A stretch of DNA of 63,653 nt, the filler included, from Vannella sp. (Eukaryota), in NCBI GenBank assembly GCA_023345925.1. It is 6 parts of 6 records of this genome, joined end to end, with 100 filler letters (N's around TTAATTAATTAA, not from the genome) between each part and the next. Parts side by side here need not be neighbours in the genome. Positions count along the whole stretch, not along the records: positions 40,399 to 62,106 come from JAJQQN010001301.1; 5 more parts are not named here. One strand, written 5' to 3'. Both the position numbers and the translations under genes were made by a program. Below are positions 1,718 through 61,901 of the stretch, one piece after another. Under the pieces are notes generated by a model that was given only the letters and a program-made list of their open reading frames with translations, did not search any database and was not told the DNA's origin. The stretch's first letter is position 1; each line of letters opens with the position of its first letter.

Positions 1718-1900
1718 TGAAATGAATAGGGGAAGGTAAGAAGGGCCAGAATAGAGTACCTTTCATGTCTAGAGCAAGCAACAGCGTTCGCTGGCTCTGC
1801 CTTGAAGTCCAGAAGAGGAGGGACAGGAAAGACCGTAAAACGACCAGAACGCATGTAAGGATAACAATGTTATGAAGTATTGAAAAGGGTTATTGGGAAG

Positions 1901-4900: not shown

Positions 4901-5100
4901 TCCTTGGAGTACTGGGTCATCTCGTGGAAGTCGCTGTTGGCGAAAACGATGGGGCAATCAGGAAGGCGCATATCAGTGATGAGCATACTCTCCTCCACCT
5001 CCCTCAACCAAGGATACTCCTTTACAATCGACTCGTAGAGTTTGGAGAGCTCTTTTGGAGCGAGAGAGGTTGCAACAGGCTTCGACCCCTCGTTCCCCAT
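1901..5100 (-). CDS. LOV-SAM-PB1-like-macro-like-TKL protein kinase, 3 exons (5100-3930, 3883-3529, 3488-1901), ~1037 aa
   Basis: LOV signature GFNCRFLQG plus NYRKDG and FIAVQKDVT. SAM: WRPPQVALWL..YVGPFIENDVDGNRFL. Kinase motifs VAVK, HRDLKSLN, DIG, GTPIWMAPE, DIYSFAM. Introns 3929-3884 (GTATGA..TACTGAC..GAAG) and 3528-3489 (GTAATG..GCTAAC..CTAG) join the three ORFs in frame. Confidence 0.85.
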
Positions 5101-6768
5101 GAGAAGATAACAATACCTCTTCGTTTCCTGTCAATACCTTAGCAAATCCCAATTCCATCTCAATTTCGTATGTAACAAGATTTGTCTGTCATTTTTCAGA
5201 AGAACCAGACGCAACATGAGTTATGGCATCACCATTTTCAAAGAATTTCTCAGAGCCAATCGTTGGTCGGTAAACATGGTGGTACAACAAAATAGCTTCT
5301 AGAGCCGCGCCACAGGAGTGGCTGATGTCAGACGAGGAGGCCTTCAGTCGCAAGGACAGCGGGGACCTCCGTGGAACCTATTCTCTCACATCACGGATCA
5401 GTGAGAAGGAGTGGAAACATCATGGTTAATAGGAGTGGAGGGTCTAATTGAAGCGAAACAAAGCATTGAGACAAGCTCCCCCCGTGGGTCCTCCTGCGAA
5501 TGACGATTTACGAGGGCTACTTTTCCACCGTCTGGAGGACAGTCCAGGACCCCAAATAGCTCAACCAATCAATGATTTTCAGAAGCACTTTTCAATGGAG
5601 GCCTGCGGAAGTAGTTCGTGCGGCTGAGAATTCTCCATTCAAGAACTGCTTCGAACTAAAATGTCCCACTTGTTTGACATTGGGGGCCATGTATGAAGAG
5701 AAACAGAGGAAGAATGCGGGAACATGTGGATTCTAGAACCTAATTGTTAAAAGATAATCACAGCTAAATTGGTTGAGCCATCTTTGTGGGTGCTGGTCCC
5801 TTGGGCCGTTGAGATAACTTGGCGACAAAGAGGACATGTCTTCTTTCTTTCAAACCTTGGTGGAGGTAAGTGATGCTCAGAAACTCAATAGATAAACACA
5901 CCACTCAGCAACACAGTCTTCACAGAATATATGTCCGCATTCCAGCTTCACTGGATCACTTAATGATTCCTGACAAATAGTACACGTTGAGCCCGCCTCC
6001 AGTAGGTCCCCAGAGGAGGGTTTCATTCCAAGGCTCTTAAGAAAGGTTAGAAAAGAAACTCAAAGAACTGCTAGTAAACCTTGGAGAAAAGAATTTCCTT
6101 GAAAGTCCTCCCCCAGGTGCTCAAAAGGCGAGTTAAATGGGAAAATTTCGCCGCTGTGTAACATATCAAAAGTGTTTCACCGTAAGTTCGATCGGGAGAA
6201 TACAAATAGAACGCCCAAACCGGTGCAGGAAGGCAAGCTCGGTAAAGTAACGAGCATCCTTCAACTACGGAGAGTATGTTGCTCTATTTCATTGTCTTAG
6301 AACCCAGTTCCAAAGGAAAGCTATTGCCTTACAACCCTCTTCCTCGATTTCTTATGATAAACGATCAATACCAAAGCTTTCACCAAAATTGTGGAAAGTT
6401 TGGCAAAGAGATCTCGAACCAGAGTTACTCCTCTGACCAACATCGGTCTAATGTGATCAGCTTACCATTGATGGTTCCGACAAAAAGGGCGTCAATAAAG
6501 CTGGGAGAGAAAGGCAGAGTTTGAAAGAACAAAGCACCAAGACAAGAGTCTCTTGAAAGGAGCATAACCGACACTGTGAGATTCAAAACACAAAACAGAA
6601 TCGTTTTCTGGAGGAGGCTTCCTCTGTTTGCTTCCTCTTGCCCAGTCTAGGCACTAGAGTGAACAAAGGAAGCTCATTTTGGGAACGCACCGCGACGCAT
6701 TGGACTATTTGGTTGCACTTGATCACAGCTAAGAACTGAGAGATGAAGATAATAATGCCTGCGATGGT

Positions 6769-7227
6769 CTAGTTACTACTGACCTGGGTTTCTGTGAGGT
6801 TTGAGGGCTTACCGAGGAAGTGTTCAAACAGAAAGGCTACTAAGAGGAGGAATAAGAAGGGAATGGGAGGAGCAAACCAGCCAAGGAAGTCAGATGCTTC
6901 TAATGGCGGTATTAAGGAGATTAGTAACTCTAGCAGTTGACCATGGACCGTGGTAGGACCGGGTGCTGGAGCAACGTCCCCTATTATGTGTTCACCCCGC
7001 TCCTCCTCATCCTCCTCCACATCCTCCAGCCCTTCCTCTATATCATCTCCACCTTCCAGGTCCGGACTATCCATAAACCTGGCTCCTTGAGAGCCTGGGC
7101 CAGCCACCAACCCAATCCTCCCCAACATGGCCCGAAGCCGCTGGTCCGAAGGCTCCCCCATCCCCCTGGAAGGCAACCAAATGGACTCAGAAGCTACATT
7201 TACATGTCCTACGTAGAAATGCTTCAT
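6769..7227 (-). CDS. hypothetical protein with acidic tract and C-terminal hydrophobic segment
   Basis: 152-aa ORF with DDIEEGLEDVEEDEEE and PIPFLFLLLVAFLF; divergent from MPST; no family recognised and start uncertain. Confidence 0.35.
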   Translation of the reverse strand: MKHFYVGHVNVASESIWLPSRGMGEPSDQRLRAMLGRIGLVAGPGSQGARFMDSPDLEGGDDIEEGLEDVEEDEEERGEHIIGDVAPAPGPTTVHGQLLELLISLIPPLEASDFLGWFAPPIPFLFLLLVAFLFEHFLGKPSNLTETQVSSN

Positions 7228-7235
7228 TTCCTTCC

Positions 7236-8366
7236 ATGCAACGGGCCGGTGGGTTCAGTAAGAGAGGGGGAGGAGCCTTTCTCACTCGTGTGGGTTCAGG
7301 CATTGTCAGTGGGGAGTGGCTACGCTCTAAGTTAGCTCGTGGACAGGCTTTGAAGATCTTGGATGCTTCCTGGTGCGTGGGGAACAAGGGATGTGGCGGG
7401 GTGAGGTCCTGATAGGGGCGTAGGTACCTTCCATCAGCTCAACGCAATGCGCGGGAGGAGTATCAGGCCAGGAGGATACAAGGAGCACGCTTCTTTGACC
7501 TTGATAACGCCTTCTCTGACAAGTCGACTTCTCTTCCTCACATGCTTCCTTCTCCTCAACACTTCTGGCACCAGGCAGCCCTTCTTGGTATCCAGCCTGG
7601 AGACATGATCGTAGCGTACGATGGGGTCAGTGTTTTGACTCCTCTCAGTCCTTCTCCTTAACCAGGGAGATGCAGATGGGCATCTTTTCAGCTGCTCGAT
7701 GCTGGTGGATGTTCCGAACGATGGGATGGGACGATAATAACGTAGCTGTACTCGATGGAGGCTTCTCAAAGGTAGCAGAGGACTTCCCAGAGCTGATAAT
7801 CGAGGGAAAGGTTGCTGATGATGACATGTCCAGCGTGCCAGAGGAGGAAGCGAGAAGGATAGCCAAGCTACTTGAGTCTAATCATCAGTTTAGACAAGAA
7901 CTCGTCCGTTCAGTCGATCAGATCGAGAGAAACCTGAAGGAGCCCCAAGAACAAGTGGTCGATGCACGTCCGCTTGGGCGATTCAACGGTACTGACCCTG
8001 AACCAAGGGCTGGCCTTTCTTCTGGGCACATGCCACACTCAGTATCTCTCCCATTCAGTGATGTTCTGGCCAAAGGGTGCATGCGGTCACCGGAAGAGAT
8101 CAGAACGTTGTACCTCGACCGTGGCATTGACATTCATGCTTCAACAGGCTCCACCATCATCAGTTCTTGTGGTTCTGGAGTCTCTGCTGCTGTCATTGAT
8201 CTCGCCTTGACTTCCGCTAGTAAGCTCCCTGGATAGATACACCAAAATCACACTAACTCCTTCCCAAGATTGCAAAGTCCCGCACGCTATTTACGATGGC
8301 TCTTGGTCTGAATACGCAGATCCTGAAGCTCAACGCCCTATCGTCTCTCTAGAACCTAAAGTCTAG
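7236..8366 (+). CDS. MPST: 3-mercaptopyruvate sulfurtransferase (tandem rhodanese), spliced
   Basis: Spliced motifs LDASW|YLP, GARFFDLD, LPHMLP, YDG|MGIFSAARCWWMF, DARP.GRF.G..PEPR, SGHMP, active-site loop CGSGVSA, YDGSWSEY; start approximate. Confidence 0.9.
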
Positions 8367-35980: not shown

Positions 35981-38900
35981 ATGCGTCGGTGGTTGGTGCT
36001 CCTCGCCTTGACGCTATCGGTCGCGTGTCTTGGCCCATTGGGTGAAAGGGATGCTCTCGTTTCTTTGTACAACGTAACCAACGGAGAGTTCTGGTCCTAT
36101 TACCGTTGGAACCTTTCTTCCGAACCGTGTGACACCCCAACATGGCCAGGTCTCACCTGCACGGGAGCCAATGTAACAAAGATCTATCTTGCCTTCAACA
36201 ACATGACTGGTACCCTTCCTGATCTGGACATGCCTTGGCTTCGTGGACTGTGAGGACGTTTGCTTCAAAGGGTCATCCTAACCGTTCTGAGTAGAACCCT
36301 TGGGAACAACCCAATCTCTGGTACTCTTCCTGAGTGGACCAATTTGATCTCACTCACGTCCATGTAAGCTTTTGAGAGCAAAGCCACCACTTACCGATGA
36401 AACAAGGAATCTGGATAATACCAGGGTCTCAGGAACCATTCCTGAATGGCCCAAGTTGACGAAACTGCAGTATATGTGAGTCCCTCCATCGTGGCAAGTA
36501 GCTCACCCTGAGTCAACCATCAGCTCTTTGGAATTCGACTATCTCCTCGAGGGCACTCTCCCGCGGTGGCACAATCTTTCTTTTCTCGAGCAAATGTGAG
36601 TGCTAGATATCTCCAATCAACCGTACTCATGTTCACTTTCGTGTAGCCGGATAAGCAATTGCCCCAAACTGGCAGGAACGCTTCCCGATTGGCAGAACTC
36701 CCCAAATCTGTTCTACATGTACGTTCTCTTTTTATGTGAAACTATGGTCTGAACGGGGTGGGTGGTAAGTGGCTTAAATTCTAATAATCACACTGGAACT
36801 CTCCCAAACTGGTCCAACCTGGCGAAGCTGAAACAACTGTGAGATTTAGTGCTTGATCTAAAAACTGCCACATTGTCTTCTCACGAAATATGATCAGGTC
36901 CCTGTACAACAACAAGATCAATGGGACTCTTCCCGAATGGCCCCTCGCAAACATGCTCGAATCTGTGTACGTCCTTGGAGTGATTGGCGTAATCTAACTT
37001 TATTTCAACGTTTGCAGGAACTTTGATAACATGAAGCTCACAGGCACCCTTCCAGAATGGCACATTCAGAACAAACTCAGCTACCTGTGAGGTTTACCAT
37101 ATTCTCTTAGATGGCATTCATCCTTTTGGGTTACTAATTATTGCAGGTCTTTGAATGGTAATAAGCTCACTGGATCTATTCCACAATGGTCCAATCTTAC
37201 TTCTTTGGGAATCTTGTAAGTTCTCTTTTAATGAATAAGACAAGCTCTTTGACATGTCTATCAGGTCATTGAGCAACAATATGATCGACGGAACACTCCC
37301 TGAGTGGCCAAACATGAGGACTCTGATCAGCGTGTGGGTAGCCTCTCGCCACTGGACTGACTGACTCACCAATGACAGGTACTTGGGTGGAAACAAGATG
37401 ACTGGAACCCTTCCTGAATGGAATGGCTCTCCTAACCTTTCATACCTGTGAGTTCTTGTAGACAACACAAATGCAAATCTGAACCCGAATTCAGATCTTT
37501 GGAAAGCGGCAACCAATTTAATGGAACACTCCCTCAATGGGTAAACTGTAGTAAGTTGAGAGAGATGTGAGTGTTTGTGCAAAATCCACTGGAAGTATCT
37601 CACTAACGGGTGCAGTCGATTGAGTAGCCAGAAGATCAGCGGGCAACTCCCTGATTGGGGGAGTATGACACGCCTATCAGAGTTATACCTGGGCTCAAAC
37701 ATGATCTCTGGAACTCTTCCTGAATGGGGGAACATGAAATCCCTTACAAAACTGTACTTAGGAGGTAACATGATCAGTGGAACTCTCCCGTTGTGGTCCA
37801 ATCTAACAAACGTTGGTTTGATGTAAGTAACTGATATGCAGAAAGTACCATCGATTCATGGAACCCTGCAGAAGCTTGGGTTCAAACGCAATTTCTGGGA
37901 CTCTTCGACCATGGCGTAACCTGATAAGGCTCACCACCTTGGATCTGAGCTACAATAAGCTGTGTGGCAGTTTGCCAGATCCGAGTCCTAACAACGCCTC
38001 TGTCTTCGTGTACTCCCAAACCTTTAATTGCACTACGAGCCCACCTTCCTTCTACAGTGGAGGAAGTTGCGATGCAATTACAGCAGGGTGCCCCGTAACT
38101 CCAAGCGCGACCCCAACAACTTCCGGATCACCAACGCAAAGTGCTTCGCCAAGTTGCAGTCGGACACAAACTGCGACTTCCAGTCACTCGCCCAGCCCCA
38201 CCGCAAGTGCGACACAGACCTCCTCGCCCAGCAAAAGCACCTCTGAAAGCTCGACTGTAACTCCAAGTTACACCTCCTCACTCTCCGCGAGCAATACGCT
38301 GAGCCCCTCAGGAACCTCCAGTGACAGCCCGTCGTCAACCGCAAGTGAAACATCAACAGCATCGCTCAGCTCCTCATCCAGCCAGAGCAAGACGCCTAGT
38401 GCCTCCGAAACGACAAGCGTTTCTGCCACGGCAACTGAAAGTCAAACTCCAACAGTATCTGACAGTACTTCGGCAACTCCCAGTACTTCGGCTACTGTGA
38501 CTCCAAGTATCAGCCTCTCTTCGAGCGAGACTACCTCGGGGTCCTCCAGTCAAACAGAAAGCTCCTCCAGCACTCAGAGCTCAACTGCCTCGCTAAGTGC
38601 TAGCGCGACTCAGTCTTCGTCAGCATCGGTCAGCTCCTCTCCCAGCCAGAGCAAGACGCACAGTGCCTCCGAAACGGCAAGCGTTTCTGTCACGACAACC
38701 GAAAGTCAAACTTCAACAGTATCTGACAGTACTTCGGCAACTCCCAGTACTTCGGCTACTGTGACTCCAAGAATCAGCCTCTCTTCGAGCGCGACTACCT
38801 CCCCCAGCCAAACAGAAAGCTCCTCCAACACTCAGAGCTCAACTGCCTCGGAAAGTGCTAGTACATCTCAGTCTTCAGCAGGCTCCTCCTTTAGCCAGAA

Positions 38901-40017
38901 CCAGCCACTGAGCAAGAGTACTTCCGAAACAGCAGCTTTATCTGCCACGACAACCGAAAGTCAGACTCTAACAATGTCAGCCAGTTCTTCGGCAACTTTC
39001 AGTCACTCAGTAATTGAAAGTGAGACTCCAATCACAAGCTATTCTCGCGCCCAGAGTGAACCACTCAGCTTCTCGAACAGTGCCCCCTCTCCAAGTGAGA
39101 CTGCTAGTTGGACTCAAGGCGGTTCTAAAGCTCAAAGTAGTAGCACCTCAATAGGTCTCACTGAAAGTGGAAACATCAGTCCAAGTAAGACATTTTCATT
39201 GTCAGCAAGCTCTCCTTCAAGTGGAAGCTCCCAAAGCCAGAGTGGTACTCTCAGAGTTTTCCTGACCAACTCTCCCACCCAAAGTGACCCTGGAACTTCT
39301 AGTGAAAGCGGTGTACCTTCCATTTCCACTTTTAGGAGTCGAAGTATCTCTGAGATAGGGACTGTGTCTCCCAGCCCCCCAAGTCGAGAGGATTTGCTCC
39401 GCATCTTCCTGACAGATCTCATTGGCACTGAGATGTTCCAAATCCCCTCCCTCACACCTGGCAAAGAAATGGGAAGACTATTTGTTTCTCCCAACCTGAG
39501 CTCGATCTTCAACGCTTCTCTGATCATTACCACTGGAAGCGAGCGTGACAATTCCAATCAGAGACTTCTCAGCGGCATCCTGGACATCACTTTGGTGGAT
39601 GGCTATGGAGATTCCAAATCTCGTTTGGATGAAAAGCTGACTATCTGCTTCCCAAGGCCCAATATCACAAAGAAGAGCGAAAAGGTGTGCTTGAGCTACT
39701 TTGATGAATCCTCAGGGAAATGGAAATGCGAAGATGAATGCCTCACCAACATGAAGAAGGACAACTTTTGGTGCGGAGAAACAGGGCATCTCACCAACTT
39801 TGCGTTGCTTTTGGTCGGTAAAAGTGGAGGCGAAACTGACCCTTGCAGCTCTTACACTCAAGACAGCACCTTGTCATGGGTGTCCATGGGCTTTGTGGCA
39901 GGAGCAGTCTTGATCGTCGCCCTTTCCGTTTTGGTCCTCGAGGTTCACATTCGCAGGAAAGCACAAGTAGAGAACTTAGAACTCCATCGGGCAGGTCTAA
40001 AAACTCAATCCATTTGA
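35981..40017 (+). CDS. LRR - Ser/Thr mucin stalk - GAIN/GPS - single-TM receptor-like protein, ~13 introns
   Basis: Signal peptide, LRRNT (ERDALVSLY..W...PC...WPGLTC), plant-type LRRs LxxNxxxGTLPEW, S/T-rich stalk, CLSYFDESSGKWKCED...CGETGHLTNFALLL, TM. Confidence 0.85.
38360..38900. repeat. ~264-bp internal duplication in the mucin stalk, plus a degenerate third copy downstream
   Basis: Near-identical blocks start at 38360 and 38624 (e.g. gacagtacttcggcaactcccagtacttcggctactgtgactccaag twice). Confidence 0.85.
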
Positions 40018-49345: not shown

Positions 49346-49733
49346 GGTGAACGAAAATGTGGAACTTTGTACTCGCCCAGAATGGGAATGGACGGGGAAT
49401 TCTCGAGTTTTCGTTGTTTTCTCCATAAGGGGAGCGCCGATCATCCGATCAGGGTTAGGTAACGTAAAAACCTCTTTCTCATCGGAACAAATCGAACTCG
49501 CCTCCCTGCGGCATTTTCATTGGCTGATGATCTGACCAATAAGAGACGAGCGTGGTTTGTTAATTCGGACAGAAGGCCAATTGCTCAATGATATCAACAT
49601 CTGAAACAGGGGCATGTACTGCTGTCTACTCGCTTACCAAACCCATGTACATTTACCTCCTCCATGCTGATTGCGACAGCTAGTGACTGACAGACAGATG
49701 ACAACCTTCACCTTTTGGCCTCCTCGAGCAGCA

Positions 49734-50975
49734 ATGCAAAGGAACTCCTTGCTGTGCATCGGTATCTCACTGATTCTGACTTTTGGGTTCTTCATGTTGT
49801 CTTCCCTCCCCCGAGGAGGAGAGGACTCTCAACAGGAACTCGAAGGTTTGGCCTCCAAGGAGACTCAAGGTCCATCTTCCCTCCCCCGAGGAGGAGAGGA
49901 CTCTAAACAGGAACTCGATGGCTCTCGACAGGAGTTTCTTCTTGCTTTGAAGAGATATGAGAAGCTACACAGTGATATGCTGGACGGGAAACGGCCAGGA
50001 AAGTACCTCACTTACGTCACCAACTATTCGGGATGGTCTGATCGTGTCCGCGGCTTCTTCAGCGTCGCCACGGTCGCCTTCATGACAGATCGAGCGTTCC
50101 TCTTCAAGAACAATATGGCAGACATCGATTTGGCCGCAGTATATGCCCAGGATCCCATCCGATGGTTTGCTGAGCCTGATGCGCCTCTGGTTCACAGCTT
50201 CTCGGTCGGATACATGCGACTGGAAGAGGAGCTCTTGCGAGAAGACACCATAGAGAGGATGAGAAACGAGCTGGGGAACATCGAACTCACAATGAGCGAC
50301 TGGGCTTGGGAAGACATCGCGCATCACCCACTCTTAGCGGAAGATCGCGCTCGCTTGAAGCTGGATGACGTACCTGATTGGGCTTCTTTGCTATTTGACC
50401 TCCTGTTCCCTCCTTCTCCAACGATGAAGAACGTCCTGAGGGACTACGTGGACCTGGTTCCTTCTCCTCGTATGGCCATTCACATCCGCACAGGTGTGGC
50501 GGAAGGTTCCCCGCAGTTCTTCGGTGGTTCTTTGGAAGCGTATGTTGGTAATCATATCGACTGCTTCAAGAGCGTGGTCGAGTCCGAAGGACTCGCCAAA
50601 GTTACTGTTTTCCTTGCAACAGACTATGAGCCCGCCTTTGACATTGCTCGGGGTCTCCTTGGGTCTATGCAAGGGGAGAACTTCTCCATACGCGTCATGA
50701 ATGGCTCGGCAATGGGGAACATCGGCCACCTCGTCCTTGCCCATCCCGAGAATGTACATTTGCGCGCTCATGCCGAGTGGGAGATCCTTCGACGAGCGGA
50801 ATGGCTGTTCCCTACCCGTAGCGGATACTCTCTAGTACCCTTCGGACTTCACCACTTCCCCAGTGCGCGAGCATTCACAACAAATCTCAACTCTGCTGGT
50901 GCATGTGAAGAGATTTCCCCTTTTGGGCTTGGATGGTTCTTTACAATGGAGCATCTTGGTCAATTCCCAAAGTAA
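49734..50975 (+). CDS. type II membrane GT-B fucosyltransferase-like protein (NodZ/FUT8/O-FucT-like)
   Basis: N-terminal TM; GWSDRVRG, AIHIRTG, VFLATD, TRSGYS match fucosyltransferase motifs. Confidence 0.75.
   Translation: MQRNSLLCIGISLILTFGFFMLSSLPRGGEDSQQELEGLASKETQGPSSLPRGGEDSKQELDGSRQEFLLALKRYEKLHSDMLDGKRPGKYLTYVTNYSGWSDRVRGFFSVATVAFMTDRAFLFKNNMADIDLAAVYAQDPIRWFAEPDAPLVHSFSVGYMRLEEELLREDTIERMRNELGNIELTMSDWAWEDIAHHPLLAEDRARLKLDDVPDWASLLFDLLFPPSPTMKNVLRDYVDLVPSPRMAIHIRTGVAEGSPQFFGGSLEAYVGNHIDCFKSVVESEGLAKVTVFLATDYEPAFDIARGLLGSMQGENFSIRVMNGSAMGNIGHLVLAHPENVHLRAHAEWEILRRAEWLFPTRSGYSLVPFGLHHFPSARAFTTNLNSAGACEEISPFGLGWFFTMEHLGQFPK
49800..49918. repeat. 44-bp direct repeat (75-bp period) in the GT stem region
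   Basis: tcttccctcccccgaggaggagaggactctMaacaggaactcga at 49800 and 49875. Confidence 0.9.
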
Positions 50976-51746: not shown

Positions 51747-54700
51747 CTATTGCCTTACGCGCGCTTGGTGCTCCGGTGGAATACCAGAAATGCAGCGGAA
51801 GCCCTTCGAGAGAAGTTTGTTGGCACGCAAAGCAGCATAGGTTGGATTACTCCAACTCTCATACAAGTTGAATTGGCTTTTCCTGATATTGTCAATGGTA
51901 TCATTGATGGTGTAGTTATCCACGTATACCTTTTGCTCAAAGAGGAGCTGTCCGTTTTGTTTACGAAGGCAGATGTTGTTGACATCTGCATCTGCCTGAG
52001 TTGCGGGAGTACTTCCTGGTTCCACAATATCAACGTCCACTGAATTAGTGCCAAAGGTGAGAGTTGCAGTGTTAAGGACACCTTTACCTCCCCCCAATAC
52101 CCTTCCTCGTAATTTCAACTGAAAAGTCATTCCGTTCACTTGAGCGTAGTTGGTGAACAGAGCCTCCACATTGTTGAAAGTTTGCCCCTTGGGGAGACTT
52201 GCATCAATGTCACTTGGAGGCCGATTGCGAATGACCCAGTCCCGAAGAAAACCACCATAGATTGTCATCGAGCAAGCATGCAACACAAATCGAGCAATGT
52301 GGATGAACAGATGGTCTCGTTCTCGTAAGTTAAGTGGACCTTGACTGAACAGAAGGACAGTTCTATCCGAGATTTCCCCAAGAGAATCGTCTCCACGGTC
52401 AGGAACTGGCAAATCATTTGATATCTGTTTCTCGCTCAGTTTAGCTTGTAAGTCTCCAATAATTGACGACATGTGGCGAAGAGCAGCAGAGCCCTCTAAA
52501 TGAATGGTAACTGTTTGAGTATTCACGGACAGTTCAAGGCGGAGAATGAATTTCTCTTCTCCTGAAGCGGCAACTTTCTTCCAAGCACCAATGAACTTTG
52601 CTTTAAACGCATCAAACTGTTCGGCAAATTTTGCCACATCCTTAGCAGATGCATCTGAGAGGGACAAATGGATTATTCTGGTTTGATTGACAGCAACCTC
52701 AATCCTGATAACCTCATTCTCGATCAAAGCAATCTCGTGAGGACTTGCAATCACTTTGATAGCGACAGTATTATCATCATCACCACAGATTGATATGCTA
52801 GTGTGAGGGAACTTTTGACAAAGCGCTGCTACTTGAGGTGTGGTCCAAAAATCTGCGTTGTGCTTTCGAAGGTAAACTGTGCATTTTCCTCTCGAAGTGA
52901 CACTTGGCATGAGTCCAATGCACTTGAATTTTCGTTTCAGCTTTGCAAAAGTGTCGTTTCTTACAAACGTTATTCCGTAGACAACTGGCTGAGCCATCTG
53001 ATCGCTACTAATGGCAGAAGTGTACAAGGCTTTAAAACCATCTGGAATATAATCGAAACGCACAAGAGATTGGTCGTGGATCCACGCAGAGGCTCTTGGA
53101 ATCTCCTCTTCCTTTTGGCGAGGATGAAGAGCAAACCAAGACTTCTCTTCTTCTTTTGGCAAAGAAAAGAAGACTTCATTTGGCTTGTCACCGCTGTCAC
53201 ATGTACCAACTTGGTCAAAGAAGGCAATGCAAAGTGCTTTTTCAACTGCAGATTGCCAATCTGACTCACCGCAATCAAAAGGATCATTGGCAGGGAGCAT
53301 GTGTTTGTACATGAGTCTGTGAAGATATTCCACATTGTAAGACGTCTGCTCTAGAACAGGAAGAGAGAGATCTAGGTCAAGGGCCCATTGAATCTCCTTC
53401 TGCCGCCTCCTTTGGCACAGATATTCATCGTAAATCTTCAAGTAAGTCAAGTGGTCACTCCTTGTTATGCAACCATCAGGTTGAAAGAAGATCTTTGAGT
53501 TGCTTCGCACAAGAATCCTATCTGCTCCAGCCATTAAGAGAGCTACAAGATGAGATCCTTTTTTGCCATAGCCAAGCTCGCAACAAGCCATCAAGAGTCG
53601 AGACAAGCGAATGTCAATCTCCAGTTGAAGAACCAAGATACCTTCTTTGGTTATCGCAAGGCCTTGAGGACCACGGCCCTTACTCTCAAGAAGGCCGAAG
53701 TTAACAAGTCTCTTTCTCGTGGCAACTTGGAGTGGTTCGGGAATTGGCTCTGGCATTTGGAAGTCAGAGTGCTGAATTGAAGTCTCAAGCCAATAGGAAA
53801 GTAAAATGGCTCGTTCCACGTTCGCAAACTGAATTGCTGGAGCAGAATCTGGAGCTAAAGAAGCGAATTCCGCCTCAGAATACATCCGAATGCACATTCC
53901 TGGGCCTTGGCGACCAGAACGTCCTTTCCGCTGTTCTGCAGAAGGGTGGGAGACCCACGAGGCGCTCTGACCACTCATGCTAAACTGGTTGACATAGTGA
54001 GAAGAGCGATGGAATCCCATATCGATGACATAAGACACTCCAGGAATAGTCAGTCCAGTCTCTGCCTCAGTTGTAGCAAACACAACAAGGCGCTCACTCG
54101 AGGAGTGGAACACAGATGCTCTTTGAGATTCAATAGAATCGCCACAAAGTGTTAACACTTCAATTTCGCCCTTCCCATTAGCCACTTGCTTGTCTCCGGA
54201 GAGCTTTTCGGAGGTAATTCGGACTAGTTTGTCGATTGTCGTCAATTCTTCTGGATGCGCAAGAGCTTCTTTTACATCGTAGGCTGCTTTGTGGGCCTCT
54301 TCGTCTCCAGTAACGAATACCAGAATTGTTCCTTTCTTTGTTGTAGAAATGAGCTCCAAAACAGCTTGGACAGTTGCATCTGTGCGGGCTTTGTTCTCTC
54401 CAAATTTGCCCAGTTCTTTCGAGTCACTGTCAAGTAAAGGGCGGTACTCAACAGCTACCGGAAAGGTTACTCCAGGAATGACAAGTACCCCAGATAGCAG
54501 CGTTGTTTTCCCGACCAAGTAAGAGCGGAACCATTCGCCATTGATTGTTGCACTGGTAACGACCACTCGCAGAGGAGCCTTTACAATCTGGCCAGAGCGG
54601 CGTTTAAGCATAGCCTTTACCATACCAAGGCACATGTCAATCTCGAGAGATCTTTCATGGGCCTCATCTAGAATGATGGCTCCGTACTCATGGAACTTGT

Positions 54701-56423
54701 CATCTGTTAGAAATTTGCTTGCAAAGAGCTCGTGGGTCATGAACATGATACGAGTAGAAGGTCTGAAAGATCCTTTACCGAATCCACATTCCCAGCCCAC
54801 TTCTTCTCCTAAAGCAGAGCCGCGTTCGAAAGCAACCCTTTTGGCAAGATACTCCGCATTGATTTGTCGAGGCTCCAGTACAAGCACGCGCTGCCCTGGA
54901 TCGATCACATGGTCTAGCAGATACTGTGGAATTTGGGTGCTCTTTCCTGACCCGGGAGTGGCTTGCACAACGCAAACATCCAAAGATGAGAACTTCCTGA
55001 TAAGATTCTGCTTCTCGGCGTATATCGGCAAGAGTGCTGATTTCTGATAGCCTTCTCGACGAACTTGCCAGTTAAGACGGTCTATCAGCTCTGGGTGCCT
55101 CTCAACTTGGTTTCGGTAGTTCTGAAGTTCCTCTTTGTATCGGAGGAAGGTCTGTAAACCTCGTTTGAAGATTTCAGTGACGAAAGAGTTCATCTGTGAT
55201 TCCAATTTCTTGATTTGCTCTTCTCTGAGGGCTTTTTGGCGAAGGTACTCTTCCTGGTATTTTGATTGATCCTTTTCGGGAATCACCGGGCCAAAGTCCA
55301 CAATTGCGCGAACATTAACACATTCAACGTCCATAAATACGTGCACAGGAGGGGAACCATTGATTGGGACGACTGGGTTGCCTCCTTTTAAACCACGCAT
55401 CACCAGCAAGGACCCGTTTACTCTGACATAACTCTTTGGAATATCCGTAGTGGAACTGGAATAAGCCCCGTCACCACAAGCTCGTCCATTGAGCTTTTCC
55501 TTTAGACTGAAACCAGAGTAAGAGATTGCAGTGGCACGCCAAGTCTCAGGAGTTCCGTGATAAAGAGGATAGATTTCCTCGCAACCCGGATACTTCTCCT
55601 TACAACGCTCCCAGATGCGATTTTGTTGGATAACAGCCACTTTTCGGATGAATTGGATGCGATTCTGATGAGTGGCAGGAACCAAACGGTAGATCTCTTG
55701 ATAAAATGAGCCTTTTGGATCCACAATGGACACGAGAGGCTGCGGAGGGGCGGTTGGGAAACGTATCAAATCAGTTATTGAGCTCTCGCTGAAGGTTTCC
55801 AACTTCATCAGCATCTTAAACGCCTTCAATTGGGCAGCTTCCCCTTTTTGTTGAAGGACTCGCAAGTCTCTTTCTACCTTCTCCAGCTCTTCTTGGATCT
55901 TACTCTGAACGAAAGGACGAATGCTGCAATAGAGGCGGTGAATGAGAAGGGCTCGGAACTCTGGACAGTCAATGAGATCCTGAATGGCGTCTGAAATGGG
56001 ATAAAGTTGGCCGAGGAAGTAAGCAGACTGTCCTTCTAACGCAGAAGCAGTGAACCAGCCTTGGTTAGAGCGATTCCAATGGCCATTGGAGGGATCATCA
56101 ATGACAAGGACACCGAGGCAGCGAGGTCCAAACCACATCTTGTGCGCCTTACAGAAGGCTTCATTGACCTCATCCTCATCAAACTGCACTCGAGAAGAGA
56201 ACAAACGGAGTCCAGATTGTTCAATAAGCTCCCCCTCACGTGGAACACCACCAAAATGGTGGACTTGGGGTCGCAAACCTTTCGTCGACACCTGAAGAAG
56301 CAATTGCGGGCTTCCCGACTTACTCTCCATCCGCACAACCACTACCACTACTCTTTGGTACGCCAGTTGGTCCCCCCAACGAAACCTACTCCCGGGTTCG
56401 ACCACATACGTGTCCTCGGACAT
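51747..56423 (-). CDS. NUDIX-like - PARP/ART-like - DEAH/RHA helicase (HA2) - class II nucleotidyltransferase-head fusion protein, ~1558 aa, no introns seen
   Basis: LYHGT..ISYSGF..GRACGDGAYSS (PARP-like); ATPGSGKSTQIPQY, ILDEAHER, TSATI, ATTEAETGLTIPGV, EQRKGRSGR (DEAH); IYGGFLRDW..PSDIDA..DADVNN (NTase). Confidence 0.85.
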   Translation of the reverse strand: MSEDTYVVEPGSRFRWGDQLAYQRVVVVVVRMESKSGSPQLLLQVSTKGLRPQVHHFGGVPREGELIEQSGLRLFSSRVQFDEDEVNEAFCKAHKMWFGPRCLGVLVIDDPSNGHWNRSNQGWFTASALEGQSAYFLGQLYPISDAIQDLIDCPEFRALLIHRLYCSIRPFVQSKIQEELEKVERDLRVLQQKGEAAQLKAFKMLMKLETFSESSITDLIRFPTAPPQPLVSIVDPKGSFYQEIYRLVPATHQNRIQFIRKVAVIQQNRIWERCKEKYPGCEEIYPLYHGTPETWRATAISYSGFSLKEKLNGRACGDGAYSSSTTDIPKSYVRVNGSLLVMRGLKGGNPVVPINGSPPVHVFMDVECVNVRAIVDFGPVIPEKDQSKYQEEYLRQKALREEQIKKLESQMNSFVTEIFKRGLQTFLRYKEELQNYRNQVERHPELIDRLNWQVRREGYQKSALLPIYAEKQNLIRKFSSLDVCVVQATPGSGKSTQIPQYLLDHVIDPGQRVLVLEPRQINAEYLAKRVAFERGSALGEEVGWECGFGKGSFRPSTRIMFMTHELFASKFLTDDKFHEYGAIILDEAHERSLEIDMCLGMVKAMLKRRSGQIVKAPLRVVVTSATINGEWFRSYLVGKTTLLSGVLVIPGVTFPVAVEYRPLLDSDSKELGKFGENKARTDATVQAVLELISTTKKGTILVFVTGDEEAHKAAYDVKEALAHPEELTTIDKLVRITSEKLSGDKQVANGKGEIEVLTLCGDSIESQRASVFHSSSERLVVFATTEAETGLTIPGVSYVIDMGFHRSSHYVNQFSMSGQSASWVSHPSAEQRKGRSGRQGPGMCIRMYSEAEFASLAPDSAPAIQFANVERAILLSYWLETSIQHSDFQMPEPIPEPLQVATRKRLVNFGLLESKGRGPQGLAITKEGILVLQLEIDIRLSRLLMACCELGYGKKGSHLVALLMAGADRILVRSNSKIFFQPDGCITRSDHLTYLKIYDEYLCQRRRQKEIQWALDLDLSLPVLEQTSYNVEYLHRLMYKHMLPANDPFDCGESDWQSAVEKALCIAFFDQVGTCDSGDKPNEVFFSLPKEEEKSWFALHPRQKEEEIPRASAWIHDQSLVRFDYIPDGFKALYTSAISSDQMAQPVVYGITFVRNDTFAKLKRKFKCIGLMPSVTSRGKCTVYLRKHNADFWTTPQVAALCQKFPHTSISICGDDDNTVAIKVIASPHEIALIENEVIRIEVAVNQTRIIHLSLSDASAKDVAKFAEQFDAFKAKFIGAWKKVAASGEEKFILRLELSVNTQTVTIHLEGSAALRHMSSIIGDLQAKLSEKQISNDLPVPDRGDDSLGEISDRTVLLFSQGPLNLRERDHLFIHIARFVLHACSMTIYGGFLRDWVIRNRPPSDIDASLPKGQTFNNVEALFTNYAQVNGMTFQLKLRGRVLGGGKGVLNTATLTFGTNSVDVDIVEPGSTPATQADADVNNICLRKQNGQLLFEQKVYVDNYTINDTIDNIRKSQFNLYESWSNPTYAALRANKLLSKGFRCISGIPPEHQARVRQ

Positions 56424-56700: not shown

Positions 56701-56902
56701 ATCAAGCAAACAGAAAGAGTAGATGAAGTCTCACGCTGCTTGGATTTTGGGGGGACGATTCACTTGGTAAGAACCCGCAAGGACGAGTACCAAAGTCAGC
56801 AAGAACCGCCACTGATGAGCACTTGGCCATTGGCGGAACTTGGCAATCGGAGTACAGACATATCATATCAAGCAAGCAAACAGAAAGAGTAGATGAAGTC
56901 TC
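56701..56902. repeat. dispersed ~30-bp direct repeat in the divergent intergenic region
   Basis: caagcaaacagaaagagtagatgaagtctc at ~56703 and ~56873. Confidence 0.85.
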
Positions 56903-57077
56903 TGATATATCAGGGGAGTAAAGGAGGCTCTTGCACCAACGAGCAAGAACATAGAAGTAGACTCCTATTCTTTAGAGCCTCATCAATACGGTCAGGCTTG
57001 ACTACGAGATGTGATATAGCCGTTAAGGTCAATACATTTGGTGCTTCTGCCAATCTTTTGCGCTGGCGATCGAGATC

Positions 57078-57190
57078 TTCTGAACGTGAGTAGGAGGTTA
57101 CTACTCACCCAGATCAAGTGCGAGTGAGAGTTTCTGAACGTGAGTAGGAGGTTACTACTCACCCAGATCAAGTGCGAGTGAGAGTTTCTG
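57078..57190. repeat. 2 x 54-bp tandem repeat, each unit with an 8-bp hairpin (gtgagtag-gaggtta-ctactcac)
   Basis: Exact duplication starting at 57078 and 57132. Confidence 0.9.
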
Positions 57191-57581
57191 GGAATCTAGA
57201 TTCCTTTACTCGTCTTAACCATACTAATAGATGGGTTTTGCACCTCTTTTACTGACTTAAGCGGCCGAACCGAGACAAAATGCGTCCTATCGGGAAAGAG
57301 CACCTGATGTCATGCTCATTTTCTCAGCCTATATCCCAATGATAGTACTATGAAGTACTTCCCTTCTAAAAAACCGTCGAAAATTCGCAAGGACTTTTGT
57401 GGGATTTTTGAGACGCCTTGAAGCTCTCACGACCTAAGATTTTATGTTAATTGGATGTTGTCATATATATCGGAAGTAAAGAGGAGATTTGGATCAAAGG
57501 GATAAAATGCGAGAGGCATTCTGATTGGCTGATAAAGTTCCCTTCTTCAGGATGGACAGTTTCTTTATTTTTTTCTCTCTC

Positions 57582-60500
57582 ATGGGCAAGGCAAAGAAGG
57601 GAGAACCTCAGGTCCGTGAGATCACCATGGCTGAATACCTAAAGCAGCAGAGGGAGAAGTTGGCCAAACTTGAGCTAAATACCTCCCAACGAACTGTCGA
57701 ATTGGGAGCCGACTTCCAACAGAAGTTCAAGCTGTTGGAGAAGGAGGAGGAAGTCCCTGAGGGAGTAAAGGTCGCCAAGAAGTCCAACAAGAAGAAGAAG
57801 GTTGCCAAGCCTAAGGCTGCTGTCATTGAGGTTGGCTTCTCTTTCATGAGCGCTTCTGACAGCACGACCGACAGCCGTCCCGATCGCAGCTCCCGTGAGG
57901 AATGCCCTCCACGTGACCGTGCCTCCCGTGAGGATCGTGGTCCTCGCAAGGGAAAGGGTGATCGACGCCCAAAGAAGGAGAGCTACTGTACCTTGTCAAG
58001 AGAGCTTGGCGAGCTGGAGGACCTTGCCTTTCGTGGATCAGACATAGACTTTGAGGAACTCACCGAAAGCGGGCGGCTTTCAGTAGAAGGGGCGACCAAC
58101 ACGTCTTGGCAGCGCTTCATCCGCTTCTTTGTCGATGAGGTTGAACCAGAGACTTGCCCGCGCACTGTTATCGAGTTGACAAAACACCCAATGTTCTGGA
58201 ATGCAAAGGAACTCAATCTGGAGGTGCTGGACGACTACCTCCAGGTATTGAGGGGTTTCCTCTTCCTTCCTGCTGCTACAGAGGAGAATCGGTTGCCTGC
58301 CCTTCTCACACACCTGAAGGAGATGGTCAAGAAAAGTTCCAAGTCTTATGGAGAGAGCAAAGTGGCAGAGTGGCTCTTTGTACTCAAAGAGTGCGACCAG
58401 CGGATGAGAGAGATCAAGAGAGTAAGAGCTGAAGTGACCGCTATGGAAGATGAGAGATTCTCAGCCTGGCAATCCCTCCAGCAACTGCCAGAGGTTCTTG
58501 CGGCACTCTCTAAGAAACAAGCACCGAGGTTCTTTGACACTCTTCAGCGATCTGGTCAGCTGGAGGAACTACTGAATAGTGCAATCGTCCCGGAAGTATC
58601 TGATAACAGTGTGGAGGTGAGAGAGAATCAAATCTCCTTCCAAAAGGTGTGGATTCCCTTTATTGAAAACGTCATCGCTTGCAGCGAGCGCTCTGTACTT
58701 CAGGCCATCATCAAGCACGAATCGTTCTTTTGGGAGATTGACAGTGTCCTCAAGAAGGTAGCACCCGACCGAAAGGCTGCTGTTGTGGCCTTCCAAGCCA
58801 CCCTTGGCTGCCTTTCGTGCATCATTCGCCTCATTCCTTCTGCTCAAGACCACTACCGAGTCACACCTCTGCTAACTTCCATCTTGGCGTTGCTTGATAA
58901 GAACGGAGGGCGCTTTGAACCGAACGGAACTCCCAATGCACTGTACATCCAATTCCATCAATGTACCGCTTCATTAGTGAGGAACGCAGACATCACTAAT
59001 CTAGAAGATCTATCCAACCAGTATGGCTGGCGCCATACCAATGATAAGGAGAATATCGATGATATTCGCCTTGCTCCTGACCTGGAAGAGATCCTTTGCC
59101 CCTTTCAAGCTCGCATTCCCACCGCTGATGGCACTTTCGAAGCATACGTAGAAAAGCAGTTCCGCATGCAAAGAGAAGAGGCTTTGAGAGGATACATGAA
59201 GGCAATGCAGTGGCTCATCCGAGAGGGCCACAAGAAGGTGCGGTCGGATCATGACTTTGTCAAATCTCCAAGTCAAAGTCTCAAAGCCATCTTCAACGTG
59301 TTCCACAACTTCGGCCACAAGGCAAATGACACATACACTTTTGACTTGCCCACGGGGGTGGGTAAAAGCGCAATCAGTCAATGGAATTACTGGAATACTG
59401 GGTCAGGCTCTAAAGACATCAGCCTCAACTGTCCGATGATGATGATGTACCGGCGAGACGGTGGCGACACACGGTTCTATCCCTGCCAAGTCATAGTTCC
59501 TGTGCAGGTATTGGAGCCGTCCATGGATCAAAGTGGCAATTTCCACTATCAAGCACCCGAGTGCGCGATTGATGTGAAAATTTTGAACTCTCCGTGGCAG
59601 GAGAAGAACTACAAGAGCCAACGGTTCCTCATTGGGCTCAAAGGGATGTTCTTTATGACTCCCCAAGCTGTTCTTGACAATCTCAAAGCATTGAAAGGTA
59701 CTATGCCTTTCCTGAAACAAATCCAAGTTCCACCTGGACCACCAGGTGCTTCACAGCCCCAGTTTGACAAATCACAAAATTACGCCCCGGCATATCTGCG
59801 CGATAGGAAGCTGGACTTTCCCATTGGCGCTCACTTCTACGATGACCCTCAGCTGACGGGTTTCGAGATAGGTGACACGTATGAGGCAACTTTGTCGAAG
59901 TTTCGCCCATTTGCTCTTGGTCTGGATGAGTCCCAGTTGGAAGCATTTGTAGCGAGTATTACACACCCAGTGGCACTAATTCAGGGACCACCAGGTACTG
60001 GAAAGAGCTTCGTTGGCGTTTATATAGCGCGTTTTCTTCTCCTCAATACCACTCGTAGCAGACCAAGTCTTCCAGCTCAATTGGATTCTGAACTCAAGGA
60101 TGATCAAATGGAAGAGATCGGAGATGAAGAGAGTGGAGAGCAAGAGAGTCTATCCGAGGCAGAAAGTGAGCCTTTCAGTGAGCAAGAATCTGATGAGGGC
60201 TCGAAGGCTGTTTTGCCAATCTTGGTAGTCGCCCAAACCAATCATGCATTGGACGAGTTCTTAATGAGCCTTATTTCTTCTGGAGCAGTCTCCAGAAAAG
60301 AAGTCCTCCGAATGGGAAAATCCATCATAAGACAAGAGCTTCGCCCCTGTTTGCTCTTGCGTGACGAGAAAGGTTCGATTAGAGAGAACGCTTGTGAGCG
60401 TGCAAGAGCGTGTAAGGTGGTGGGAATCACTACTTCAGGTTGTGCCCTTAACCCTCAACTGATTGCTGAACTGAAGCCGAAAGTTATCATTTGCGAAGAG

Positions 60501-61901
60501 GCTAGTGAAGTTTTAGAATGCCACATGCTTATGGCGCTCAGTGACAGTACAGAGCACCTTATTCTAATTGGCGACCACATGCAACTCAGTCCAAAGGTGA
60601 CCGAAATGACTCTGACTGGTGAACCCTTGAACTTCGACCGGTCACTCTTCGAGCGTCTTGTGTCTCCCTTTGACGCTATGGGCGATAAGCAGCGCGCAGG
60701 TAGGGTGGTAACTTTAAATGTCCAGCGGCGTATGCATCCATCCATCTCTCAGCTTATCAGGCACCCTGAACTCTACCCGAATCTGAAGGATTTGCCGACA
60801 ATTGAGGAGTATGTTCCAGCTGGCTTTCCCTTTAACGTTTGGTTTTTGGACCACAATGGACCAGAGAGTCAACCGCGCAACTCGACTTCTCATTGTAATC
60901 TTCAAGAGGCACGGATTGCTCTTCAAATGGCCAAGTTTCTCGTTTATCAAGGAAACAGGGAGATCGTCATCATCTCTCCCTACCAGGCTCAAATTGATGA
61001 GTTCAACAGAATGCTAGATGAACCTGAATATCAAATGCAATTGGAAGTGCCCGGTAACTATGGGCCGGAACTACAAACGTTCCCTTTGCGGAACTCTATC
61101 CGATTGGCAACCATCGATAGCTTCCAAGGAGAAGAGTCGGGTATAGTCATCCTTTCTCTTGTCCGGAACAATGCCCAAGGCGGAATGGGGTTCCTTAACC
61201 GCAACCGAATCAACGTTATGCTGTCACGGGCAAAGTACTGCCTTATCGTTCTGGGTTCCACAAAGACCATCATGAAGAAACGGGGCAAAAATCAAACCGC
61301 CGTGCTTTCTGACGCTGTGAAGACCCTCCAATCCCAGAACCGAGTCCATGAGGAACTTCCTCTTCGCTGCTTCAATCATAGCACTGAGATTCAATATGCA
61401 CATCCAGACCATCTCGACAAGTATTGCAAGGATGGTGGTTGCGACAAGCCATGCGAGGGTGTCTACTACAGATGTGGCCATGCCTGTCCGAGGAATTGCC
61501 ATTACCACGACCGAGAGCACAAGTTCGACTGTCCCAAAATACTGGAAAAGGTCTACCCGGGCTGCCTCCATGTGCAGAACTATCCTTGTTCCGGTCCTGT
61601 GCCAAACCAATGCCCTGAGGTGGTTGCGGTTGATGCGCTGAAGGAGTGTCCTCATTTGACTGTCCCATGCCACAAGTTGAAAGAGCGTGAGCTCCCTGGG
61701 TACAAGTGTCGGCAGCCATGTCCTGAGATCTGCCAGTCCTGCAACCAAACCTGCCTTACTCCTTGTTACGAATGTGCTCACAATGATCGCAAACAAAAAC
61801 GACGGAACGAGGCCACCTGCTCGCGTTGCCAGAAACGAGAGGAAGTTCCCAAGAAGAAGAAGAAGTTCGCGAACACGAAGAAGAAGAAGAAGCGGCGCTA
61901 A
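57582..61901 (+). CDS. ZNFX1-like SF1 (UPF1-like) helicase with C-terminal NF-X1-type Cys/His fingers, no introns seen
   Basis: QFRMQREE, IQGPPGTGKS, QTNHALDEFL, CEEASEVLE, LIGDHMQL, SLFERL, QRRMHPSI, TIDSFQGEE, RINVMLSRAK, then GGCDKPC...CGHACPRNCH fingers. Confidence 0.9.
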   Translation: MGKAKKGEPQVREITMAEYLKQQREKLAKLELNTSQRTVELGADFQQKFKLLEKEEEVPEGVKVAKKSNKKKKVAKPKAAVIEVGFSFMSASDSTTDSRPDRSSREECPPRDRASREDRGPRKGKGDRRPKKESYCTLSRELGELEDLAFRGSDIDFEELTESGRLSVEGATNTSWQRFIRFFVDEVEPETCPRTVIELTKHPMFWNAKELNLEVLDDYLQVLRGFLFLPAATEENRLPALLTHLKEMVKKSSKSYGESKVAEWLFVLKECDQRMREIKRVRAEVTAMEDERFSAWQSLQQLPEVLAALSKKQAPRFFDTLQRSGQLEELLNSAIVPEVSDNSVEVRENQISFQKVWIPFIENVIACSERSVLQAIIKHESFFWEIDSVLKKVAPDRKAAVVAFQATLGCLSCIIRLIPSAQDHYRVTPLLTSILALLDKNGGRFEPNGTPNALYIQFHQCTASLVRNADITNLEDLSNQYGWRHTNDKENIDDIRLAPDLEEILCPFQARIPTADGTFEAYVEKQFRMQREEALRGYMKAMQWLIREGHKKVRSDHDFVKSPSQSLKAIFNVFHNFGHKANDTYTFDLPTGVGKSAISQWNYWNTGSGSKDISLNCPMMMMYRRDGGDTRFYPCQVIVPVQVLEPSMDQSGNFHYQAPECAIDVKILNSPWQEKNYKSQRFLIGLKGMFFMTPQAVLDNLKALKGTMPFLKQIQVPPGPPGASQPQFDKSQNYAPAYLRDRKLDFPIGAHFYDDPQLTGFEIGDTYEATLSKFRPFALGLDESQLEAFVASITHPVALIQGPPGTGKSFVGVYIARFLLLNTTRSRPSLPAQLDSELKDDQMEEIGDEESGEQESLSEAESEPFSEQESDEGSKAVLPILVVAQTNHALDEFLMSLISSGAVSRKEVLRMGKSIIRQELRPCLLLRDEKGSIRENACERARACKVVGITTSGCALNPQLIAELKPKVIICEEASEVLECHMLMALSDSTEHLILIGDHMQLSPKVTEMTLTGEPLNFDRSLFERLVSPFDAMGDKQRAGRVVTLNVQRRMHPSISQLIRHPELYPNLKDLPTIEEYVPAGFPFNVWFLDHNGPESQPRNSTSHCNLQEARIALQMAKFLVYQGNREIVIISPYQAQIDEFNRMLDEPEYQMQLEVPGNYGPELQTFPLRNSIRLATIDSFQGEESGIVILSLVRNNAQGGMGFLNRNRINVMLSRAKYCLIVLGSTKTIMKKRGKNQTAVLSDAVKTLQSQNRVHEELPLRCFNHSTEIQYAHPDHLDKYCKDGGCDKPCEGVYYRCGHACPRNCHYHDREHKFDCPKILEKVYPGCLHVQNYPCSGPVPNQCPEVVAVDALKECPHLTVPCHKLKERELPGYKCRQPCPEICQSCNQTCLTPCYECAHNDRKQKRRNEATCSRCQKREEVPKKKKKFANTKKKKKRR

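Follow-up and report, generated by a model that had tools for sequence, protein, structure and literature searches.

A single open reading frame (ORF) of Vannella sp. (assembly GCA_023345925.1, record JAJQQN010001301.1) encodes a protein, P0001, that joins a NUDIX-like fold, an ADP-ribosyltransferase (ART) domain of the PARP type, a DEAH helicase, a KH-like region and a nucleotidyltransferase (NTase). It lies in a window of 63,653 nucleotides, the whole stretch of DNA that was analyzed. The same order of domains was found in 25 full-length proteins (18 that were aligned and 7 more), which make up a conserved, apparently undescribed eukaryotic family. Also new here is the recurrence of this NTase beside ADP-ribose domains in several layouts. 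The ways in which microbial eukaryotes recognize and neutralize foreign RNA are poorly understood. We tentatively favor the view that these proteins could be one-chain machines that capture RNA and inactivate it by attaching one ADP-ribose and a short tail of nucleotides, most likely as a defense against viral or other foreign RNA. The parts of the ORF, in window positions and amino acids (aa), are as follows.

51747..56423, minus strand: whole ORF (protein P0001), 1558 aa in a single unbroken frame, with the order NUDIX-like, ART, coiled helix, DEAH helicase, HA2/OB, KH-like, NTase
55926..56363, minus strand: NUDIX-fold domain, aa 21-166, with a degenerate box
55284..55751, minus strand: PARP-type ART domain, aa 225-380; H289, G290 and Y321 in 18/18 aligned members, Y332 in 17/18; third triad position not Glu
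55041..55283, minus strand: helical or coiled linker from ART to helicase, aa 381-461, from sequence and alignment (the model stops at aa 390)
53874..55040, minus strand: DEAH/RHA helicase core, aa 462-850; motifs I, II (DEAH), III (SAT) and VI (QRxGRxGR) intact
52944..53873, minus strand: winged helix/HA2 and OB-like region, aa 851-1160, from the Prp43 alignment; Pfam HA2 and OB matches in homologues only
52392..52895, minus strand: KH-like domain (aa 1177-1246) and second alpha/beta, ferredoxin-like domain (aa 1246-1344); middling Z scores of 6.5-8.9; Pfam KH in homologues
51750..52361, minus strand: NTase of the Pol-beta superfamily, aa 1355-1558; GGFxRD, D1405, D1407, D1465, DxDxxN and RxxK

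Domains and folds along the chain

A sequence-only reading of this DNA had placed an ART/PARP-like domain, a complete helicase and an NTase head in one ORF, and every motif that it named is present there: HGTP (aa 289, 55559), GDGAY (aa 317, 55475) and PPVHVF (aa 358) in the ART domain; Walker A (aa 489, 54959), DEAH (aa 586, 54668) and QRKGRSGR (aa 831) in the helicase; and GGFLRD (aa 1390, 52256) and DID (aa 1405, 52211) in the NTase. These three identities hold. The inventory was incomplete, since the NUDIX and KH-like domains, the Macro domain of other family members and the third NTase carboxylate, D1465, had been overlooked, as had the wider link between the NTase and ADP-ribose domains. 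That link and the NUDIX, Macro and KH parts bear on the mechanism. A search of the six frames of the window found no match to a Macro exon upstream of the ORF.

AlphaFold models were built from 18-sequence alignments for aa 1-390 and aa 1160-1558 (mean predicted local distance difference test scores of 81.5 and 82.4, respectively); the first 20-35 residues of each are misaligned. The model of aa 230-380 matched PARP13, PARP15 and PARP10 with Z scores of 17.2, 16.7 and 16.4, respectively (root mean square deviation [rmsd] of 2.5-2.7, about 150 residues aligned), and PARP10, PARP12 and PARP15 were ranked first by Foldseek. The query ART scored 104.8 bits with a profile lacking the query and its two closest relatives, versus a maximum of -0.3 over 200 shuffles. 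The Pfam PARP model matched the 18 aligned members only below the cut-off and the query not at all, and PDB sequence searches with aa 1-460 and with an ART homologue gave no significant match. The third triad position, which is located by motif spacing, is variable and never Glu in 18/18 members. An H-Y pair without Glu is the mono-ART pattern, according to the available text of PMC9149570. The Z score of 17 and the alignment of H289 and Y321 thus bear out the predicted ART/PARP-like domain without a Glu, and they support its placement in the ARTD/PARP fold with a putative mono-ART-type triad. A poly-ART of the PARP1/tankyrase type was rejected, as the H-Y-E triad is absent. The domain resembles PARP10/12/14/15 and ZAP/PARP13 in its fold (Z of 16-17), in its H-Y-non-Glu triad and in the RNA-binding, Macro, WWE and CCCH partners seen in the wider family. 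It differs in sequence (16-19% identity), and these PARPs carry neither a DEAH helicase nor an NTase in the domain list of PMC9149570.

The NUDIX fold (aa 21-166) matched the NUDIX hydrolases RenU (Z of 13.2, rmsd of 2.9, 131 residues aligned), Dcp2 (12.3) and g5Rp (12.0) in a model guided by NUDIX-bearing homologues. The metal-binding acids RE..EE, kept in 20 of the 22 readable boxes of the family, are absent from the query box, so this copy is likely inactive. When aligned to P0003 and P0002, the query domain reached a pairwise score of 80 with P0003, versus a shuffle maximum of 51 (0/500 shuffles as high), and it scored 8.6 versus 4.7 bits once the profile included close relatives. The call rests on the P0003/P0002 alignment, on position and on the homologue-guided model.

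For the helicase, the best PDB sequence match was Prp43 (E = 2.4e-55), with an alignment extending through HA2 into OB; together with motifs I, II, III and VI, this confirms the complete DEAH/RHA helicase with HA2 that had been proposed. Only helicase models of Pfam (DEAD, Helicase_C and Flavi_DEAD) exceeded the cut-off in the query. The HA2, PARP and PolyA_pol models had no match in the whole protein or in six segments of it, and NCBIfam gave nothing relevant. The KH region scored 11 bits with the profile lacking the query and its two closest relatives.

The helicase cores of the family form one clade, with a support of 100 in FastTree (104 chosen rows) and 99 in a quick IQ-TREE analysis (54 rows), group labels being taken from Pfam lists and source names. 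This clade is not nested in Prp16/22, HrpA/B, DHX29/57, DHX33/35 or DHX37. Its grouping with the DEAH11/12 helicases, which carry a RING-between-RING (RBR) module, had a support of 85 in FastTree and was not resolved by IQ-TREE. DEAH11 and DEAH12 likewise follow a DEAH core with KH-like domains and an effector enzyme, but their effector is an RBR ubiquitin ligase instead of ART and NTase, and they fall in a separate clade. A helicase-RBR identity was rejected because neither the query nor 17 homologues have RING/IBR and the C terminus is an NTase. Among the spliceosomal Prp43/22/16/2, Prp43 is the best PDB match; the family forms its own clade (support of 99-100), and Prp proteins are not known to carry ART or NTase domains. 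Orthology to a known housekeeping helicase, a possibility raised by the sequence-only reading, was not found in these trees, with one topology test as a caveat (below).

The model of the C-terminal ~200 aa matched CCA-adding enzymes with a Z score of 11.1 (rmsd of 4.2, 174 residues aligned) and TENT5B with 9.0. The query NTase scored 102.6 bits with a profile lacking the query and its two closest relatives, versus a maximum of 2.7 over 200 shuffles. Its three carboxylates are retained in 96, 97 and 90 (plus 5 with Glu) of 97 NTase domains, 6 shorter matches being omitted. The domain ends after the head and a short neck, and 95/103 NTase domains finish at most 60 aa from the C terminus. The CCA/TENT5-like fold, the GG...DxD motifs and the end of the protein after the head agree with the class II-type head without body or tail seen earlier. 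Class II CCA-adding and poly(A) polymerases and TENT5 (FAM46) share with it the head fold, GGxxRD...DxD and the third Asp, at 10-16% identity; the query differs in having no body or tail, RRD or EDxxR. RRD and EDxxR are the template motifs of CCA-adding enzymes, and a class II CCA-adding enzyme was rejected on the absence of these motifs and of body and tail. The protein thus belongs to the DEAH and PARP-fold superfamilies and is not an RBR helicase, a poly-ART or a CCA-adding enzyme.

Outside eukaryotes, only distant relatives of the NTase were seen. The best viral fold matches were giant-virus proteins (E = 3.7e-9, Foldseek on viral models). In the ESM Atlas the NTase lies near phage clusters (score of 0.95) in which 29-30% of members carry Pfam Gad2, and PHROG 1614 matched 10/28 members. 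Phage Gad2-like and giant-virus NTases are thus the nearest by language-model features, by Foldseek on viral models and by PHROG 1614; they differ in being viral with no helicase fusion seen, and Gad2 is set beside the family by description, not by alignment. Gad2 (PF26128) had no match in Pfam scans of the query, for which the Pfam copy may predate that model. Searches of PDB sequences with the NTase profile gave nothing significant, a word-index search with the NTase region retained 0/389 candidates, and PolyA_pol matched a single relative, below the cut-off. A phage tblastn search reached E = 0.3 at best, and none of the 26 pattern matches in a prokaryote genome scan was confirmed. A match from a second viral scan (L015) was treated as spurious, as no listed ORF on that strand covers it. 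As side observations, a giant-virus contig (L001) encodes an 861-aa protein with an NTase N-terminal motif (5614-8199, plus strand), whose profile E value of 2.2e-9 covers 27 positions only, and a 5-kb contig (L006) holds two NTase matches facing each other (1872-2372, plus strand, and 2821-3348, minus strand).

The family and the partners of its NTase

When aa 216-1165 served as the query, 10 proteins covering 88-99% of this segment were retrieved with E values of at most 1e-85, far above other helicases among the best 120 of 1135 matches, and EukProt entry P0010 was one of the 10. A profile search added 7 members, including those of Phytophthora boehmeriae, Pythium oligandrum, the unclassified Eukaryota sp. 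TZLM3-RCL and EukProt P0123. Searching exhaustively with aa 1160-1558 yielded 96 matches, 7 of them further members with the full layout. The 18 aligned members are 22-38% identical. ART, helicase, KH region and NTase are present in 18/18 and NUDIX in 17/18; Macro is found in 11/25 members, several others being cut at the N terminus. Invariant in the alignment are H289, G290, Y321, the ATPase motifs, YGGFxRD, D1405, D1407, D1465, D1478 and N1483. Of 13 metagenome loci, three (L002, L003 and L008) contain every domain in the family's order, and the sequence of L004 breaks off within the NTase. The terminal folds hold in AlphaFold and Foldseek, and a domain order common to 25 proteins makes the fusion no one-off. 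No animal, plant or fungal names occurred among family-level matches, each search having scored about 8,000 candidates. Source names of member proteins cite helicase, Macro, NUDIX or PARP parts and never the NTase. An ESM Atlas cluster of 57 members, automatically named as a PARP family and with Helicase_C in 95%, scored 0.87 to P0124 and is a lead only. Combinations of the domain terms matched no papers, and broader literature searches listed work on Gad2, ZNFX1, conflict systems, ADP-ribosylation and DEAH12 as a marker gene. No title or abstract start in the literature searched describes the NUDIX-ART-DEAH-KH-NTase layout; this coverage leaves out most subscription journals, so absence from print is unproven. 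The Pythium oligandrum protein P0127 continues at its last NTase helix into an inosine-uridine nucleoside hydrolase domain, possibly by a gene-model fusion.

The NTase was repeatedly found in the company of ADP-ribose domains. Of its 34 matches of at least 900 aa, 27 have the H-G-T...G.G.Y ART motif, and Pfam identifies PARP, PARG or WWE in another 3. The remaining 4 comprise 3 whose sequence starts within the helicase and 1 with RING only. The search favors the query layout because aa 1160-1558 included the KH region; among the 13 long matches of other layouts, 12 carry ART, WWE or PARG. WWE was also seen in 11/33 shorter matches scanned. A second helicase layout, with the order (CCCH)-DEAH-long middle-(IBR)-PARP(H-Y-x)-WWE-WWE-NTase and an ART without Glu, was found in 7 proteins (P0256, P0276, P0285, P0289, P0290, P0300 and P0311), which form their own clade (support of 100); EukProt P0099 has this layout minus the NTase. 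Helicase-free layouts are PARG-WWE-NTase, kinase-PARP-NTase and PARP-NTase-UIM (523 aa), and the fusions in P0277, P0282, P0305, P0295 and P0261 involve microbial PARG with WWE, kinase with PARP, PARP with UIM, RING or cold-shock domains (CSD). Some NTases have CSD or RING, or no visible partner. In FastTree the NTases of the two helicase layouts interleave: 9 rows require 9 changes, at least 5 of them forced by starred branches, which suggests an exchange of cassettes. A tree uniting both helicase layouts was 23.5 log-likelihood units better than the free quick tree, so the pairing of NTase and ADP-ribose domains may have a single origin.

This recurrent pairing with ART, WWE, Macro and PARG points to a possible new chemistry, in which ADP-ribose itself would be the primer of the NTase. 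The free adenosine 2'/3'-OH of the ART mark would be extended to a hybrid ADP-ribose-oligonucleotide, read by Macro or WWE and trimmed by NUDIX, a scheme compatible with defense. Three layouts without helicase and 30/34 matches of at least 900 aa with ART, WWE or PARG fit it, as do the ARTs of both helicase layouts without a chain-forming Glu and the 2',3'-diol of the ADP-ribose adenosine, which is like that of an RNA end. OAS reportedly adenylates ADP-ribose or poly(ADP-ribose). The layouts may however share one ancestral ART-NTase cassette (+23.5 log-likelihood units), in which case the co-occurrences are not independent; the same co-occurrence is predicted by action on the two ends of one RNA; some NTases have CSD, RING or no visible partner; and no precedent was found for the fold. 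We consider this chemistry rather unlikely. A similarly low probability applies to a broader version of it, an undescribed eukaryotic NTase family dedicated to mono-ADP-ribosylation that would make hybrid marks on RNA or protein and be wired to DEAH helicases as RNA-triggered immunity, with NTases of the same fold in giant viruses.

Proposed RNA tagging and the alternatives

What we observe for the proposed tagging of RNA by one chain are the domain order, the folds, the invariant catalytic residues and the spread of the family, from which we infer the following steps. The helicase and the KH-like region would engage single-stranded RNA and move along it 3' to 5', the direction of DEAH proteins, which need a 3' single-stranded tail. 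The NTase would add untemplated nucleotides to the 3'-OH and, given this need, would also furnish the loading tail. The H-Y-x ART would mono-ADP-ribosylate the phosphorylated RNA end, or a bound protein. In fuller members, NUDIX may prepare or trim the 5' end and Macro may read or erase the mark; with no Macro and a likely dead NUDIX, the query copy would be a writer without erasers. Action on RNA ends is proposed as the simplest chain that employs every part. In the available text of PMC8385414, PARP10/11/15 cap 5'-phosphate single-stranded RNA with ADP-ribose in vitro, macrodomains reverse this, and NUDT16 removes the ADP-ribose cap made by TRPT1, with a hypothesized antiviral role; caps and ADP-ribose are cleaved by NUDIX enzymes (PMC9503650, partial text). 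The family would offer a natural context for RNA-end ADP-ribosylation, known so far in vitro only in the same text of PMC8385414. It unites in one chain a helicase, a writer of ADP-ribose, domains that erase or read the mark, and an NTase lacking annotation, so that every step can be assayed by mutating one active site at a time.

A possible antiviral sensor-effector role, as the sequence-only reading had also supposed, is suggested by the divergence of the family, the shuffling of the NTase, the viral look-alikes and a ZNFX1-like neighbor. In ZNFX1, which acts in antiviral immunity, an RNA helicase and a modifying enzyme are fused (10.1101/2025.09.05.674436, partial text). The helicase-effector design is alike; ZNFX1 has a superfamily 1 (SF1) helicase and an E3 ligase, unlike the query in superfamily and chemistry.

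Several observations weigh against tagging and defense. A fold alone is no demonstration of function, and the top fold match of the ART is the inactive PARP13, with the pseudo-PARP TASOR at a Z score of 14.9. RNA-primer chemistry is not assured, as the NTase lacks the RR of RRD and EDxxR. In an approximately unbiased test, a sister position to the Prp group was not rejected (P = 0.19), in trees that contain no Prp43/DHX15 row. The few named matches no more than suggest a patchy distribution. No ZNFX1-like homologue was found in loci L001-L014, most of which are too short, so the adjacency is one observation. The query NUDIX did not exceed shuffles with a profile lacking P0001-P0003, and the KH GxxG loop, common in homologues, is missing from the query alignment. 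Query-only changes were found at near-invariant helicase positions (R520Q, G565E and N785E). These changes, the NUDIX box and the missing GxxG are signs of decay in this copy.

That the query is a decaying, partly pseudo-enzymatic paralogue of a functional family nonetheless seems to us very improbable. The dead-looking NUDIX, the absence of Macro and the three helicase substitutions agree with it, as does the long end branch of the query (0.57-0.71 versus medians of 0.35 and 0.26 in the two trees). The frame is, however, open over 1558 aa with no indel or joint among listed rows, and every catalytic residue of ART, ATPase and NTase is retained.

Housekeeping surveillance or repair is another reading, which we likewise consider rather unlikely. 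A fused TRAMP-like or tRNA/rRNA-repair unit would tail or heal RNA with the NTase, unwind it with the helicase, and clean end phosphates and ADP-ribose by-products with ART, Macro and NUDIX. In its favor, the NTase fold comes closest to those of CCA-adding enzymes and TENT5, members occur in distantly related eukaryotes, and the window neighbors are mostly housekeeping genes of matching codon GC. TRAMP itself is a multisubunit assembly of a tailing NTase and a Ski2-type helicase, with no ART. NAD and ADP-ribose domains do occur in RNA repair, according to the accessible part of PMC9503650. On the other side, the ART matches the PARP type, with Tpt1/KptA absent among the best 50 fold matches listed, and the low identity, the turnover of Macro and NUDIX domains and the NTase shuffling are unusual for core machinery. 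Animal, plant and fungal names are also missing among the family-level matches, for which each search scored about 8,000 candidates.

Helicase-gated signaling or suicide seems less probable still. Bound RNA would trigger NAD+ cleavage by the ART, a diffusible messenger made by the NTase as by OAS/cGAS, or both. The layout is that of a sensor plus enzyme, and Gad2 is borne by about 30% of members of the phage clusters next to the NTase (ESM Atlas score of 0.95); this phage protein counters Gabija and is predicted to contain an NTase domain (10.1101/2023.05.01.538930, partial text). OAS and cGAS are, however, missing among the listed fold matches, where class II CCA and TENT5 lead; no receptor gene was seen nearby; and such products would be degraded by the NUDIX and Macro domains of the chain itself.

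Locus, assembly and neighboring genes

The neighbors of the ORF in the window are eukaryotic by Pfam (Dna2, Ras, DNA polymerase phi, NPR3 and a tyrosine-kinase-like gene). GC is uniform along the window, and the codon GC of the ORF (0.56/0.39/0.46) is similar to that of its neighbors. A viral insertion was set aside on these neighbors and this GC. DNA runs containing at least half of the words of the ORF are 3 biofilm metagenomes of one study, possibly the source samples, and they have read cover in all bins over the ORF. No RNA runs were among the listed holders of ORF words, which gives no evidence on expression. Among the contig rows listed, there is no indel or joint inside the ORF. No single contig spans it, and the listed pieces leave the ART-helicase and KH-NTase junctions unbridged (301 further pieces are unlisted), so the integrity of its assembly rests on homologues. 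Misassembly or chance fusion was set aside because 25 full-length proteins have the same domain order.

The ZNFX1-like gene stands head-to-head with the ORF:

57552..61901, plus strand: ZNFX1-like SF1 helicase with a Cys-rich tail, its start 1.1 kb from that of the ORF; context only

Its E value is 3.4e-58 to ZNFX1 versus 1.3e-25 to UPF1. Some contigs diverge strongly from this gene, with 63 other letters over 558 bases (61176-61736) and 74 over 1046 (58464-59509), and could be divergent alleles or paralogues; over the ORF, unlike this gene, listed contig pieces differ by 0-1 letters. The intergenic region 56703-57173 contains a tandem duplicate of 54 bases (57066-57173) and a 30-base repeat whose copies, at 56703 and 56873, are identical. 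Its segment 56761-56830 likely recurs elsewhere in the genome, given loose ends and high depth in three runs.

Three further ORFs of the window drew attention. A 425-aa ORF at 49698-50975 (plus strand) has no Pfam match, is hydrophobic over a stretch near its N terminus and contains a short internal duplication; its motifs may resemble those of O-fucosyltransferases. A 719-aa ORF at 37858-40017 (plus strand) has weak leucine-rich repeat matches and an unusual second-position GC of 0.63. The third, at 3901-5100 (minus strand), encodes a PAS-SAM protein.

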